Origin: Alphaproteobacteria bacterium
GTDB lineage: Bacteria > Pseudomonadota > Alphaproteobacteria > SP197
Direction of reading: 5' to 3'
Length of the DNA: 64,000 nucleotides
Assembly: GCA_964291265.2 (NCBI GenBank)
Contig: OZ219747.1
Coordinates: forward strand, 480,001-544,000
Every line of letters starts with the position of its first letter. Within the stretch, counting starts at the first letter, position 1. The notes below the pieces were generated by a model. It did no database searches, was not told the DNA's origin, and was given only the letters and a program-made list of their open reading frames with translations. Below, piece after piece: positions 52,904-64,000 of this stretch. The position numbers were made by a program, and so were the translations under genes.

Positions 52904-53254
52904 ATGCCTGTCGATGTCGTGCGCCTCAGACGGAGAAGCGACTATCTTCGCGTGGCGGCGACGCGGCTGAAGGCGGTCACTCCGGGGATCGTCGTCCAGG
53001 CAGCGCCCCGCGACGACGATGCCATCGGTGTCGGGTACACGGCGAGCCGCAGGGTCGGCAACGCCGTCCGGCGCAACCGGGCGCGGCGACGGCTGAAAGC
53101 TCTCGCCCCGCCGATTCTCGCCCGGTCCGGGCACAGGGCCACAGACTATGTCCTGATCGCCCGCCGTGAAACGGTCCATCGTCCCTTCGCCTGCCTTGTC
53201 GGCGATCTCGAAAGGGCGCTCACCCGCCTCGGTAACGCTGCGCCGCGGTCATGA
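52904..53254 (+). CDS. rnpA: Ribonuclease P protein component
   Basis: [28 protein letters not shown]. Confidence 0.95.
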
Positions 53255-53490
53255 GAAACGCCGCCTCATCCGTTCTACAGGCCTTCATCCTGATCTACCG
53301 GTATGGCATATCGCCCCTGACGCCGGCGTCGTGCCGCTATCTTCCGACCTGTTCGGCCTATGCCAGCGAAGCCATTCGCCGGCACGGTCCACTGAGAGGC
53401 GCCTCGCTGGCGCTCCGTCGTATCGCGCGGTGCCACCCCCTAGGCGGAAGCGGCTACGATCCGGTTCCCGAGAGAACGAACGAACGATGA
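53251..53490 (+). CDS. yidD: Membrane protein insertion efficiency factor
   Basis: ISP...[27 protein letters not shown]. Confidence 0.95.
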
Positions 53491-55235
53491 TGCCCCAGGA
53501 ACAGCGGAACGTGTGGTTGGCCACGGCAATCATCCTCCTGATGTTCCTAGCCTGGCAGTTTCTCTACGAACTTCCGAGAATACAGCGGGAACAGGAAGCT
53601 GTCGAACGCCAGCAGGAACTCGCCGCCACCGGGGACGATTCCACCCTGCCCCGGGTCTCCACGTCCTCGGTCGGCGTGGAGGAATCCGTTGTCCGGGAGA
53701 TCAGCCGAAGCGAAGCCCTGGCGCAGTCGCCCCGCATTGCCATCCGGACACCGACTCTGAGCGGCTCCATCGCCCTTGTCGGCGGGCGCATCGACGATCT
53801 CACACTCCTCGACTACCGCATGGAAGTCGGACCGGACTCGCCGGATGTCATCCTGCTGTCACCGGTAGGAGGTCCGTCCTCCTACTTCACCGAATTCGGC
53901 TGGCTCGACGGGGGTTCGGGTGCGACCCTGCCGGATTCGACCTCCATGTGGCAGGCAGGCGATGTCGCGCTGACGCCCGAGACACCCGTCACGCTCTCCT
54001 GGAACAACGGCGAGGGCCTTCTCTTCGAGCGGACCTTCGCGGTCGACGAGCATTCCATGTTCACCGTGACCCAGCGTGTCATCAACCAGGGCGGGGAAAC
54101 GGTCTCGCTTCTTCCCTACGGCCGGATCAAGCGGTACGGGACACCACCGACGCTGGGATTCTACATCCTGCACGAGGGGCTGATCGGAGTCCTCAACGAG
54201 ACCCTCGAGGAAATCGACTACGACGATCTGTCGGACCCTGACGATGCGTCGGAAATCTCGTTCGACAGCCCGAACGGTTGGCTCGGCATCACTGACAAGT
54301 ACTGGCTTGTGGCACTGATACCCGACCAGGGCGATCCGTTCCGTGGCCGCTTTCTCCATCACCTCCAGGGAGGAACGACGGACACCTACCAGGCGGACTT
54401 CTACCGCAGCGCGCTCAGCGTGGCACCGGGCGCGACCGTCACCTCCGAGGACCGCCTGTTCGCAGGCGCCAAGGTCGTGACCGAGCTCGACAACTACGCC
54501 GAGGCCTTCAACATCCCGCTCTTCGACCGGGCGGTGGACTTCGGCTGGTTCTACTTCCTCACGAAACCCATCTTCTTCGTCCTGCTGTGGCTCAAGAACG
54601 CGATCGGGAACTTCGGTCTCGCCATCCTGGCGCTCACCGTCATCATCAAGATCATCTTCTTCCCCCTGGCCAACAAGTCCTACCGATCGATGAGCAAGAT
54701 GCGCAAGCTGGCGCCGAAGATGAAGGAGCTGCGCGAGCGTTTCGGTGACGACAAGCAGAAGATGCAGCAGGAACTGATGGCCCTCTACCGCCAGGAGAAG
54801 GTCAACCCAGCCTCGGGCTGTCTGCCGATCCTGGTGCAGATTCCGGTCTTCTTTGCCCTCTACAAGGTGCTGTTCGTCACCATCGAGATGCGCCACGCGC
54901 CGTTCTACGGCTGGATCGAGGATCTTTCCGAACCCGATCCGACGGTGATCTGGAATGTCTTCGGACTGCTTCCCTTCGATCCCGGAGTCTTCCTGCCGCC
55001 CTTCCTGATGATCGGCGCCTGGCCCGTCCTGATGTCCTCGACCATGTGGCTGCAGCAGAGGATCAGTCCGCAGCCACCGGATCCCATGCAGGCAAGGATC
55101 TTCATGTTTCTGCCGCTCATCTTCCTCTTCATCTTCGCCACCTTTCCGGCGGGGCTGGTGATCTACTGGACGTGGAACAACCTGCTCTCTATCGCCCAGC
55201 AGTGGTTCATCATGAAGCGGGAGGGCGTCGACTAG
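53487..55235 (+). CDS. yidC: Membrane protein insertase
   Basis: [34 protein letters not shown]-like [17 protein letters not shown]. Confidence 0.96.
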
Positions 55236-55646: not shown

Positions 55647-58849
<3,203 letters not shown>

Positions 58850-58961: not shown

Positions 58962-60698
58962 TCACGGTTCAAACGGTCCGTATTCGATCAAGGCGGACCG
59001 GCCGAGGATGTCCACGATGGTGACCGACAAGTCCGAGCCACGGGCGTCCGTCAGCCGTATCGGTTTGCCGGGCCGAAACGGCACGGGTTGCGGACGTCCC
59101 TCGTCGATGGCGATGTTGTCGGCATACAGATACGTCCGGTCGGTCGTATCGCGTATCGGGTTCAGCCGTCCGTGCAGGCCAGGGAGGTATCCCGAGTCCT
59201 GAGAGAAAATCGCGGCGCCACCGGATTCGAGCGGTTCGAGTTCGAGCAGCAGGCCGCCCTGATGAGGGGTCCAGGCTCGTTCCAATCCGGCGGCATAGCC
59301 CGACCCGGCAGCATAGACCGTCATCGACAAATTCGTCGTATAGAGGTCCAGAGCCGCAGCGCCGGTCTCGTCGGTCGTCGCCCGGACCCAGGTCTTGTTG
59401 GGAAAGAGCGCGAGAACCTCGATACCGGTGAGGGGCTCACCTCCGCAATGCACCGTGACTGTTGCATCGGCAGGAACAAGCTCCAGCTTGGCAGCGGGAA
59501 TGCGGAGCACCAAGCTCGATTCATCAACCAATCTGTATTCCGGCGGCAAACCGGTGGCCTCCTGGGTTTCCGCGCGGATGATCGACACGCCGTCCCCGCG
59601 GCGTTCCATCAGGTACCTGCGATGACCGGACCCGGCCACACTGGCGATGGGGACGCGCCCGAACACGGATGCGATCACCTCGTTGCGCGTGGCCTGACTG
59701 TCCTCCATGCCTTCGATGGTCATACCGTTCGGAAGCTCGCCGGGCGAATCGATCTCCAGGCGATCCTTGAACATGGAGAGCCGAATCCTGCGGGACGACA
59801 TGGAGTAGTCGCGGTGCGCCACCGCGTTGACCACCGCTTCGAACACGGCGGCCTTGCTGTACTGGACAACATCTTCCCGTTGCGGAGTCTTGCGGGCGGA
59901 AACACGCATGTTGCGAACGACGAACCGGACCGCGTCCGCGATCTGTTCGGGGAGCGGTCCGGCGATCTCCTGCGCGTCCAGCTGGCCCGAGGCGCGATCC
60001 AGTCCGCGATAGTGTGTTGCCGCGATGGTCGCTTGCGGCAACCAGTCATGCGGAGAAGGAGTGCAAAGCAGAATGCCGGCCACGGTGGCTCGATCAACGC
60101 CCGCTTCATCCTGCGCCAGCAGGCGGAGATTGCGCAGTCCCCGCCGTGGATCCGCCGCCGCCGTCACGCTGAGCAACGGCTCCCACAGGCGTTCGCTGAG
60201 TGTCTCGAAGCCGGTTTCGGGAACACTCTGCTTGTCGAACCACAGGTAGCGGTTCTGCGCGCGCTTCTGCGCCAGCCTCAGACCTTCGTCCCTGCGCAGA
60301 CGCCGCTTGGTCGCACCGACCCGGACGAATGCCTGCCCGTTCCGTTCATGCAGGGCTTCGCCGCGTGGAACTGCGACCAGCAGGAATGCTCTGCCATTCA
60401 GTTCCCTATGGTGGACGCCGATGCGCAGCGGCGGCTCAAGGGCGTCGGTGCTGACCTCCACAAGAAGGTGATCCAGCGCCGCCATCTGCTCCCGCGACAT
60501 GCCTTGGACTGTTCCATCGTCGGACACTCCACAGAGCAATGTCCCGCCGTCCGCGTTGCCGAACGCGCCCAGTTCATCCGCCCAATCGTCTCTGCGTGGG
60601 CTGGTCGGTATGTCGCCACGGAACTCGACCCGCTTGAATTCCCACTGGCTGTCCTCACCCAGGCGGAGTTGGCGGCGGATGTCTTCGTCCGTGATCAT
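58962..60698 (-). CDS. Schlafen/AlbA_2 plus HATPase_c_4-like protein with a beta-rich C-terminal extension
   Basis: EDSQWEFK, AFGNADGGTLLCGVSD, EAVVNAVAHRDYS, IDSPG, RN.VI, ERRGDG; ATGA-coupled to hsdS. Confidence 0.82.
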   Translation of the reverse strand: MITDEDIRRQLRLGEDSQWEFKRVEFRGDIPTSPRRDDWADELGAFGNADGGTLLCGVSDDGTVQGMSREQMAALDHLLVEVSTDALEPPLRIGVHHRELNGRAFLLVAVPRGEALHERNGQAFVRVGATKRRLRRDEGLRLAQKRAQNRYLWFDKQSVPETGFETLSERLWEPLLSVTAAADPRRGLRNLRLLAQDEAGVDRATVAGILLCTPSPHDWLPQATIAATHYRGLDRASGQLDAQEIAGPLPEQIADAVRFVVRNMRVSARKTPQREDVVQYSKAAVFEAVVNAVAHRDYSMSSRRIRLSMFKDRLEIDSPGELPNGMTIEGMEDSQATRNEVIASVFGRVPIASVAGSGHRRYLMERRGDGVSIIRAETQEATGLPPEYRLVDESSLVLRIPAAKLELVPADATVTVHCGGEPLTGIEVLALFPNKTWVRATTDETGAAALDLYTTNLSMTVYAAGSGYAAGLERAWTPHQGGLLLELEPLESGGAAIFSQDSGYLPGLHGRLNPIRDTTDRTYLYADNIAIDEGRPQPVPFRPGKPIRLTDARGSDLSVTIVDILGRSALIEYGPFEP

Positions 60699-62365
60699 GG
60701 CGCAACCCCCTCTACAGCGCGCTCCCCATCCCGAAGGCTGATTTCGCCGGACATGAGCTTTGGGAGAAGCAGATCGCGGAGAGCGCCAATGGTCTCGATC
60801 TGGTGCAGATTGCTCAGGGCGCGTCTCATAATCGGCATCGCCCACACCTCAAAGGCTTCTGCGACGCTCACCGGTGGCAAGGCTAAATCGACCAGAGCAA
60901 AAGTCTGGCGTGTGATCGTGTCAAAAATCGTGCCGTGCGTCCGGTTCCGCAACTCTTCCACCATCATTCTGACAAGCCAGTATGTGAAGAAGTCACAATA
61001 GCCGCCGACGCCTCGTATCCCGTAGCAACTCTGATTCATGGCCATCGCCCTGCCGAGACAAGCCAACTTTCCGACAGTGCCCCTTGCGGTAATAACGGTC
61101 GTTCCGGCCGAAAGAACTTCTGCCGCACTGTTTTCAACCCCTGTTTGCGTAATGCTCCTCTCGGTCTCCAGGACGAACATGTCCGAGGAAGATGGCGCAT
61201 CTTTTGCCGTATACCAATAAATTTCGCCATCCCAATAATCTTCGATTGACGTTTTAGGCGTACCTCCACTGTGAATTTCTATTACATCATCTAAAACTCC
61301 TGCCTCCCACCCCACCGGTATCTCACCAAGTTCGGAGTTGACGAAGCGGTCAGGAAACAGTTCCCACAGGTCAGGGACGAGGTAAGGGGCACGCCCTTCC
61401 ATCTTCGCCCGGACCGGTCCGAAATCGACGAACCAGTCCTTGAAGATCGCCCGCGCCATCGCCTCCAGCGTCTCGTTCATGCACCGGTTCAGTTCGATCT
61501 TGTCTTCCAAACTCTCAACAAGTTGCAGAAACGTGCGACGAATGGGCGTTAGTGAAGGTATCGGAAAGGAAAGGAAGTCATCACGGGAGAGACCTAGGTT
61601 GGTCGTCCCCGTGGCGTGTGCCTTGCAATATGCTCGATACTGAGGAGTCCTCAGCATCCAGTAGATGTATGTTTTGACAGATTCGTCATCCTTGAAGTTC
61701 AGCTTTACCGTGTCTTGGGTAAGCCTTCCTTGCGAAATCGTATCCGGAACCCGTGCAATGGCGCCAAGCAGATCAGCAGATTGCGTTACGTCCTTCAAAG
61801 ACACATAGATGTCACCGGGCTCTAGAAGGATCCGTTTGTCGGAAGGACCACCATAGGTCTTGAGGTTGTCAGGTCGAAAGCCTCCATTGCGTGCAATGGA
61901 GGCCAACCCCAGCAAAACTGGCCCATCTTGTCCCAGCAAGGCACTCTTGTAGGTACTCCCCCTTTGCAAGTCGACATAGTCTCCGAGAGTACTGATCGAT
62001 TGGTCCAGACGACTGACCGCATCAGAGCCCTGCGCCGGAACATGGACACTCAGCCCGTCACGGCGGATTATTTTGCGGAAGGTTTCGTCAATGCTCGCCC
62101 AATCGACAATATCAACCTTAAAGGGAAGGTCGGACTCGCTAAACGCGTCGACCAGCGCCGTGCTTACGTCCAGCGGTAGCGACTCCTTACCTATAATGGC
62201 GAGATCGAGATCAGAGTAGTTCTTCGCCGTCCAGGTCGCACGAGATCCGAAAGTCACTACCTGCCGATCCGGGACGTACCGCTGCAGAATGTTCCGCACG
62301 ACTGCCCAATGATCGGGCCGAAGGTCAAGGTGCGTCGTTTCCTCGTTCATGCCAGACGGTCTCAC
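60695..62365 (-). CDS. hsdS: Minimal nucleotidyltransferase (MntA/HI0073-like) fused to Type I specificity subunit HsdS
   Basis: N-terminal FGSRATWTAKNYSDLD...DLPFKVDIVD; then two TRDs with EDKIELN...LEAMARAIFKDWFVDF, ELGEIP.GW, GGTP, LRDLLLPKLMSGE. Confidence 0.88.
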   Translation of the reverse strand: MRPSGMNEETTHLDLRPDHWAVVRNILQRYVPDRQVVTFGSRATWTAKNYSDLDLAIIGKESLPLDVSTALVDAFSESDLPFKVDIVDWASIDETFRKIIRRDGLSVHVPAQGSDAVSRLDQSISTLGDYVDLQRGSTYKSALLGQDGPVLLGLASIARNGGFRPDNLKTYGGPSDKRILLEPGDIYVSLKDVTQSADLLGAIARVPDTISQGRLTQDTVKLNFKDDESVKTYIYWMLRTPQYRAYCKAHATGTTNLGLSRDDFLSFPIPSLTPIRRTFLQLVESLEDKIELNRCMNETLEAMARAIFKDWFVDFGPVRAKMEGRAPYLVPDLWELFPDRFVNSELGEIPVGWEAGVLDDVIEIHSGGTPKTSIEDYWDGEIYWYTAKDAPSSSDMFVLETERSITQTGVENSAAEVLSAGTTVITARGTVGKLACLGRAMAMNQSCYGIRGVGGYCDFFTYWLVRMMVEELRNRTHGTIFDTITRQTFALVDLALPPVSVAEAFEVWAMPIMRRALSNLHQIETIGALRDLLLPKLMSGEISLRDGERAVEGVAP

Positions 62366-62746
62366 AATTTGTCGCGCAAATAAGTCACCTCTCTGATGAA
62401 TTGAGAAATGCCTTCGACCACCTCGAGCGCGGTATTCTCATTGTAGGTGTGGCTGGTTTTCGCACGCATGCCACGAAAGTCGCGCCAACTCGGCCAGTCT
62501 CCCAACAAAAGGCCCTGCTCGTTGCCCGTTCGAATTAAATCCTGAAACGTCATCTCATCGAATTGCCCCGGGTTGGCCGAAGCATATTCGAGATAGCGCT
62601 TCAGACTCTTGTGCGCGAGCTCATAGGTGAACTCGAAACGCTGAATCAGACCATCGCGAATTTGTGTATCGCTCTCGTTGTCTTGATATCGCAGAAGCCC
62701 TTCTTCAAGGCGTTGAATTGCGCGTTCAAAGGGCGCAATCTCGACA

Positions 62747-62763
<17 letters not shown>
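62362..62763 (-). CDS. HEPN protein (HI0074/HepT-like toxin)
   Basis: [24 protein letters not shown] = RX4HXY; overlaps the MNT-HsdS start. Confidence 0.88.

Positions 62764-64000
<1,237 letters not shown>

Follow-up and report, generated by a model that had tools for sequence, protein, structure and literature searches.

An MNT antitoxin domain fused to the HsdS specificity subunit in Type I restriction-modification operons carrying a HEPN toxin gene

In this work we describe an operon within a 64,000-nt stretch of an alphaproteobacterial genome (Alphaproteobacteria bacterium, GCA_964291265.2, contig OZ219747.1, positions 480,001-544,000; hereafter the window), in which a HEPN toxin gene and an MNT antitoxin lie inside a Type I restriction-modification (R-M) operon and the antitoxin forms the N-terminal domain of the specificity subunit HsdS. 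Read along the minus strand, the open reading frame and domain calls give hsdM (N6_Mtase, in two frames), the HEPN gene, MNT::HsdS, a gene combining SLFN_AlbA_2 and HATPase_c_4 domains, and hsdR, which is the order proposed in an initial annotation of the sequence. The lower GC content remarked on there is also evident, at 53% for the cassette compared with 65% for the contig. The same annotation described overlaps among the first four genes; those between hsdM and the HEPN gene (17 nt) and between hsdS and the AlbA gene (ATGA) are present, but the HEPN stop codon comes five codons earlier than in homologs, so that the window lacks the ATGA by which this gene usually overlaps the MNT start. 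Scanning for promoters and terminators gave signal at chance level. The features are as follows, with HsdS target recognition domains abbreviated TRD and lengths given in amino acids (aa):

62747..64000, minus strand: hsdM pseudogene, with its start ~245 nt past the window end, a frameshift in the NPPF codons near 63445 and a 24-nt in-frame deletion near 63130
62362..62763, minus strand: HEPN toxin gene of the HI0074/PF08780 family, 133 aa, with RX4HXY at R100-Y107 and a C-terminus 5 residues short
60695-62365, minus strand: MNT::HsdS single frame of 556 codons, with Polbeta/NTP_transf_2 at aa 23-104 and Methylase_S downstream
62040..62350, minus strand: HI0073-like MNT antitoxin domain, with GSX10DXD at G40-D54 and a third Asp, D85 (numbering from 62365)
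62003..62074, minus strand: end of the MNT and linker, aa 98-121, pLDDT <50
60695..62002, minus strand: HsdS part of the fusion, comprising TRD1, central coiled coil, TRD2 and C-terminal coiled coil
60778..62853, no strand assigned: low-GC exchangeable segment holding the hsdM tail, HEPN, MNT and both TRDs
58962..60698, minus strand: Schlafen/AlbA_2 + HATPase_c_4 gene, 578 aa, accessory and outside the conserved core
55647..58849, minus strand: hsdR of the T1RH-like_C family, with a 1-nt frameshift near 58456 and 99% identity to an intact paralogue

The HEPN protein matches PF08780 (E 1e-34; 119.7 bits with a cut-off of 31.8) and scores above the cut-off of TIGR01987. Its RAKTSHTY, read as RX4HXY in the initial annotation, has the form of the HEPN motif of Type VII HepT/MntA Class I systems, while the protein is a single domain lacking the fused ABC-ATPase that defines the PrrC type. 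The tail that follows the motif is 26 aa long, the shortest of 53 counted (mode 31). The adjacent MNT, the neighbour that characterizes Class I, matches PF01909 (32.8 bits) and PF18765 (40 bits), falls short of the free-standing antitoxin equivalog NF047752 (35.2 bits; cut-off 60), and shares G40, S41, D52 and D54 with all 48 aligned sequences. Best PDB matches for the two proteins are HI0074, HI0073 and the Legionella HEPN-MNT pair.

Domain searches place the MNT and HsdS domains in one frame, in agreement with the earlier reading of a GSX10DXD motif in frame with two TRDs. The likelier start of the fusion is the ATG at 62350, which agrees with homolog starts and gives a protein of 551 aa. 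The HsdS part matches the PADLOC profile Specificity_I (E 9e-85) and has the composition of a specificity subunit, with two TRDs split by coiled-coil conserved regions. In an AlphaFold model built on a 48-row alignment (mean pLDDT 84), a folded MNT is joined through low-confidence residues 98-121 to a normal two-TRD HsdS that matches structures 1yf2 and 7vs4. Ahead of TRD1 the window linker contains no in-frame ATG, GTG or TTG, and HsdS would therefore be made there only with the MNT attached. A separate internal HsdS start was considered among homologs and rejected, as an ATG within 12 codons occurs in 8 of the 43 parsable linkers (of 56), equal to the background of 19%.

A second operon in the same genome (L088, C2:3810969-3822458), in which hsdM, hsdS and hsdR are all open, serves as a reference for the state of the window copy. 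Relative to this paralogue, the window hsdM has lost 1 nt in the NPPF codons at ~63445 and carries in-frame deletions of 15, 30 and 24 nt along with many missense changes, and hsdR has lost 1 nt at ~58456, leaving both genes frameshifted and the window R-M system incomplete. Sequencing error as the source of the hsdM frameshift is ruled out by the multi-codon deletions and missense changes, a ruling that covers hsdM and not the single-base loss in hsdR. The window AlbA gene and hsdR are otherwise 99% identical to the paralogous operon, and the flanks of the exchanged segment are 88-99% identical. Between 60778 and 62853 the two operons are wholly different except for 160 bp of the central conserved region, each having its own HEPN (27% identical) and its own MNT::HsdS (MNT 36-38%). 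In sequence terms the window copy is a duplicate in decay whose toxin-antitoxin-specificity cassette has been swapped, and the near-identical intact operon could provide in trans the M and R subunits that it lacks. We also observed that the AlbA gene of L088 is interrupted by 2.4 kb of inserted DNA, which has inverted ends and is accompanied by a short target duplication, and that the genome holds a free-standing HEPN/MNT pair and two more broken hsdM/hsdR remnants (C2:1211840-1212830, C2:3765816-3776102 and C1:103541-104365). Within the window, the R-M region stops right after genes that we take to be rnpA-yidD-yidC (52904-55235, and 55537), a plausible island boundary.

The exchange of a whole 2.1-kb low-GC segment between near-identical backbones favours one explanation that demands no link to restriction, namely that a toxin-antitoxin pair embedded in the hsdM-hsdS junction rides hsdS swaps and acts by ordinary addiction or through its own trigger (e.g. 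ATP shortage), uncoupled from the state of the R-M complex. We hold this to be a serious possibility, somewhat short of an even chance. Fusion would then be favoured by guaranteeing antitoxin expression and making the MNT hard to delete without losing HsdS, and the lack of hsdS starts above background (8/43) lets it act as a ratchet. Defence genes embedded in Type I operons are documented (10.1101/2024.01.29.577857, in the part available), and PADLOC lists weakly matching MNT-like candidates (PDC-S09). However, an unfused operon would co-express the two genes equally, yet in this HsdM family unfused cassettes are outnumbered by fused ones, and hsdS stays separate in four other loci where genes lie between hsdM and hsdS (L265, L268, L270 and L283).

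Contrary to the possibility that the fusion is a one-off, which would have spoken against the initial annotation, the architecture proved widespread. The window's MNT type is found in 796 proteins of 305-973 aa; among 120 relatives listed, HsdS segments are present in every one, GSX10DXD in 118 and tandem MNTs (MNT-MNT-HsdS) in 13, with TRD1 missing in 2. Because the fusion frame is open in all 120 of these listed homologs, which come from other assemblies, it is not an assembly accident. The fused hsdM-HEPN-MNT::hsdS layout occurs in 48 of 80 fetched GTDB loci, spanning 12 phyla; these 80 were drawn from a larger number of matches, and the search patterns came from the alignment of fused proteins, which biases the set towards fusions. 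An intact operon (ZMOB_RS09235, RS09975, RS10260 and RS09100) is also carried by plasmid pZMOB01 of the cultured Zymomonas mobilis ATCC 10988, a harmless laboratory strain. Counting the window and pZMOB01 with the GTDB loci gives 50 fused loci; in 49 of them the gene immediately upstream encodes a HEPN with RX4HXY, and hsdM lies upstream in 46. Also in this tally are 32 free-standing rows, one MNT::HsdM and 8 MNTs that are R-M-associated but unfused, of which two come from Acetobacter plasmids.

Approaching the family from other genes gave a complementary picture. Starting from hsdM, relatives gave 10 matches, of which all but the weakest were fetched, and 7 of these 9 loci are fused; in a phylum sample of 400 genomes, where 37 of 54 hsdM matches were examined, HEPN and MNT are present in 12 and fused in 11 of 11 scorable; this sample covers only five families, and three of its loci are probably the same records as in the pattern-based set. 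Seen from hsdM, R-M operons thus show a strong preference for the fused state. When HEPN is taken as the starting point, the 30 best PF08780 loci all lack R-M genes within 1.5 kb and the 25 MNTs detected there are all unfused, which indicates that most of the HEPN family is free-standing. A search of 50,697 phage records returned no MNT match, and viral contigs yielded no confirmed locus.

Of 9 long relatives in a second, distant and mostly free-standing MNT subfamily, 5 are likewise HsdS fusions, three with the hsdM-HEPN-MNT::hsdS layout; among the subfamily's 80 metagenome loci 5 are fused (two duplicates, and one inferred from a frame running off its contig), ~4 are R-M-associated and unfused, and the rest are free. 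Placement of all fused MNTs in a single clade was rejected by the AU test (p 2e-67; 28 vs 33 hand-chosen rows, 95 columns), and the fusion has therefore been gained repeatedly, or gained with many losses. On the trees the fused, unfused and free-standing forms are intermixed, with 20 and 17 changes, where the concatenated tree is a quick one distorted by toxin swapping and the MNT-only tree has few columns and clusters labels no better than shuffles (34/500). This intermixing, and a floppy, variable linker, is also consistent with an embedded pair. The median dN/dS of 163 MNT pairs is 0.118 and that of 75 HEPN pairs 0.119 (the pairs are non-independent), values which indicate that toxin and antitoxin are under purifying selection. 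Neutral read-through can be imagined, in which a mobile pair inserted ahead of hsdS and was tolerated after losing its stop codon, given that linkers resemble recruited intergenic DNA and that the window copy is decaying. The fusion is specific to R-M subunits and recurs in two MNT subfamilies and in 12 phyla, with both genes under purifying selection, which leaves this account improbable and largely disfavoured.

Mantel correlations are 0.65 for HEPN-MNT, 0.33 for MNT-HsdM and 0.15 for HEPN-HsdM (p 0.07). In 78 locus pairs HsdM is >90% identical, and in 40 of these HEPN is <50% identical, often with MNT at 80-91%; in L023/L036, for example, identities are 97% for HsdM, 91% for MNT and 30% for HEPN. 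HEPNs that are 26-31% identical occupy the slot between near-identical hsdM and MNT genes, with DNA alignments breaking exactly over the HEPN gene, and the toxin slot has therefore been refilled while the antitoxin stays. The stronger covariation of MNT with HEPN than with HsdM speaks against a further explanation, that HsdS brings the tethered MNT to the R-M complex or to DNA-bound proteins, where its nucleotidylation target is HsdM, HsdR or a phage protein and HEPN silencing is secondary. Three features point towards this explanation: the MNT is intact where HEPN has been lost (L038, L107 and L230), MNTs occur in tandem in 13 of the 120 listed relatives, and the GS-loop position four residues after GS, normally Gly, is Trp or Phe in 52 of the 57 main-lineage fused MNTs (Trp at aa 45 in the window), a count biased by the search pattern. 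Set against these, HEPN is present in 49 of 50 fused loci, the second fused lineage retains Gly at this position, and the tandem-MNT locus L105 has two HEPNs, so that an alternative substrate appears only slightly less improbable than neutral read-through.

Loss of R-M genes among fused loci is asymmetric. Of 47 fused loci, 45 keep hsdM intact. Among the 37 that could be scored for hsdR (11 could not), 14 have it broken or absent, as against 1 of 20 operons without the cassette (Fisher p 0.01). The fused loci without an intact adjacent hsdM (the window, L038 and L078) each lie in a genome with another close hsdM, a weak observation at n=3. This retention of hsdM, together with fusion of the MNT to HsdM in L058, is not explained by an embedded pair in itself.

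The fusion is also found in several altered forms. TRD1 has been deleted with the MNT kept in L042, L058, P0001 and P0043, and half-size HsdS lacking TRD1 occurs with an MNT in L042, L275, P0001 and P0043; as speculation, a half-size HsdS would need dimerization, which would place two MNTs to match a HEPN dimer. L058 (3031-6720) and L278 encode a HEPN, MNT::HsdM, a second HEPN and an MNT fused to half an HsdS with one TRD, with no hsdR nearby. Cassettes are stacked in L105 (2802-7216; a Fic-like gene, two HEPNs and MNT-MNT-HsdS), L110 and L281 (two HEPNs and one MNT::HsdS). P0040, P0080 and P0087 carry an extra DUF559 nuclease-like insert within MNT::HsdS; the fusions of L005 and L078 are similarly long (700-740 aa), the insert being known from the P proteins alone. 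P0053 joins HEPN, MNT and HsdS in one frame (372 aa, partial) and may be an assembly slip, and in L002 (2275-4071) a 598-aa Gly/Asp repeat (RTX-like calcium-binding) protein lies between transposase genes just upstream of the operon.

As described in the available text of PMC7641770, MNT adds AMP to the Tyr of RX4HXY and so silences the HEPN RNase. Carried over to these operons, the HEPN dimer would be an RNase held silent in this way. Our preferred reading, held tentatively and at a little under an even chance, is that fusion to the HsdS N-terminus makes the supply of working antitoxin depend on HsdM-HsdS assembly, providing a backup akin to PrrC or Ronin; the embedded pair remains close to it in probability. 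MNT-HsdS would be stable or active only inside the M2S1 methylase, such that newly made HEPN would stay unmodified and halt the cell once hsdM is lost or anti-restriction proteins disrupt the complex, and the toxin slot may take up different HEPNs. Such coupling, acting via assembly or stability, fits the retention of hsdM relative to the loss of hsdR. In a different fusion, an MNT domain split from its partner is destabilized and degraded by Lon, and the Ronin toxin is suppressed by HsdMS, according to the accessible portions of PMC13000451 and 10.1101/2023.04.06.535777; PrrC is likewise cited as a guard precedent in those of PMC3710099 and PMC12707154.

The guard role suggested by the initial annotation fits a widespread, recurrent fusion conserved with an intact toxin. 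Since linkers vary from 5 to 44 residues across fusions and the MNT may be joined to either S or M, a fixed allosteric switch or rigid sensor is unlikely, and a link by way of assembly or stability is favoured over it. The accompanying proposal that the fusion makes hsdS addictive is weak: the MNT is N-terminal and its frame survives truncation of HsdS (L014 and L028), making the fusion a poor lock on hsdS. Several observations weigh against dependence on methylase assembly itself. The linker lengths are without conservation, and the structural model gives no packing confidence (pTM 0.68). AMPylation is covalent, so that release from silencing needs new toxin synthesis or AMP removal, and a route to reversal is unexplained. 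Apparently intact unfused hsdM-HEPN-MNT-hsdS-hsdR operons on Acetobacter plasmids indicate that fusion is not required, and in L038, L107 and L230 the fusion is kept without its HEPN. The hsdM/hsdR asymmetry is confounded by taxon, assembly type and kinship, with control operons selected on hsdM; a methylase kept without restriction is common among R-M systems generally; and a close hsdM is present anyway in 4 of 5 genomes tested. Finally, the reading presupposes that HsdS is unstable without HsdM.

Several known systems resemble this architecture in part. Type VII HepT/MntA Class I systems (PF08780/PF01909; HI0074/HI0073, PDB 1jog and 1no5; Legionella HEPN-MNT, 8xdj and 8xeh) share its Pfam families, both motifs and adjacent genes, but here the antitoxin is the N-terminal domain of HsdS; in the available text of three HepT/MntA papers (PMC7641770, PMC11586414 and PMC13000451) the word 'restriction' does not occur. 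PrrC-EcoPrrI is similar in having a HEPN RNase gene embedded in a Type I operon as a proposed second line of defence; PrrC, however, is an ABC-ATPase-HEPN protein that the R-M complex itself masks, without any antitoxin enzyme, in contrast to an antitoxin fused to S or M. PMC3710099, in its accessible part, proposes PrrC-like guarding for many HEPN families near R-M genes and describes HEPN domains fused to nucleases or helicases, with 'HsdS' absent from that text. In Ronin (HsdM-HsdS-RonA), as the accessible part of 10.1101/2023.04.06.535777 describes it, the toxin is restrained by HsdMS, hsdR is dispensable and anti-restriction proteins act as the trigger; RonA is a 61-aa membrane toxin with neither enzyme antitoxin nor fusion, and the trigger shown for Ronin is a proposal for MNT::HsdS. 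The guilt-by-embedding set and PADLOC PDC-S09 likewise have cargo between hsd genes, but as separate ORFs, and the available main text of 10.1101/2024.01.29.577857 contains neither 'MNT' nor 'HsdS', while its supplements, outside that text, may list the cassette. The hsdSp gene deleted in Z. mobilis ZM4 (available text of PMC8432527) was considered as a case of the fusion and set aside, since at 1122 nt (PMC5930841 supplement) it is too short. The open literature searched, which excludes subscription journals and bioRxiv supplements, yielded no account of an MNT-HsdS fusion.

Such fusions have nevertheless entered curated resources: positions 2-98 of the PADLOC profile PDLC03138 'Specificity_I' match MNT, and NCBI names the fusion proteins 'restriction endonuclease subunit S'. 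In toxin-antitoxin-chaperone (TAC) systems the antitoxin acts by binding and has an appended part that makes it dependent on a partner protein (SecB-like), and phage proteins can trip the system; the MNT fusion is also an antitoxin with an appended part, which here is a whole HsdS whose dependence would be analogous. To our knowledge only a few R-M guards have been recognized, namely PrrC, Ronin, PARIS and EcoR22I. A broader, on balance unlikely, proposal drawn from these genomic comparisons is that a broad-specificity adenylyltransferase on HsdS or HsdM would constitute a widespread, repeatedly evolved class of methylase-addicted antitoxin, working only in the assembled methylase and guarding Type I systems through an interchangeable HEPN slot, with restriction-dead hsdM-hsdS loci serving as decoys for phage anti-restriction proteins.

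Together, this work describes an architecture that is real, widespread, recurrent and apparently undescribed, a variant of the R-M guard and type VII themes that is common in one HsdM family and hidden under the annotation 'restriction endonuclease subunit S'. If the MNT does depend on methylase assembly, these operons would provide type VII HEPN/MNT systems with a physiological trigger, and would be an instance of one enzyme antitoxin serving HEPNs that are only ~30% identical. If the pair is instead simply embedded, they would represent a clear case of a toxin-antitoxin pair parasitizing hsdS exchange.

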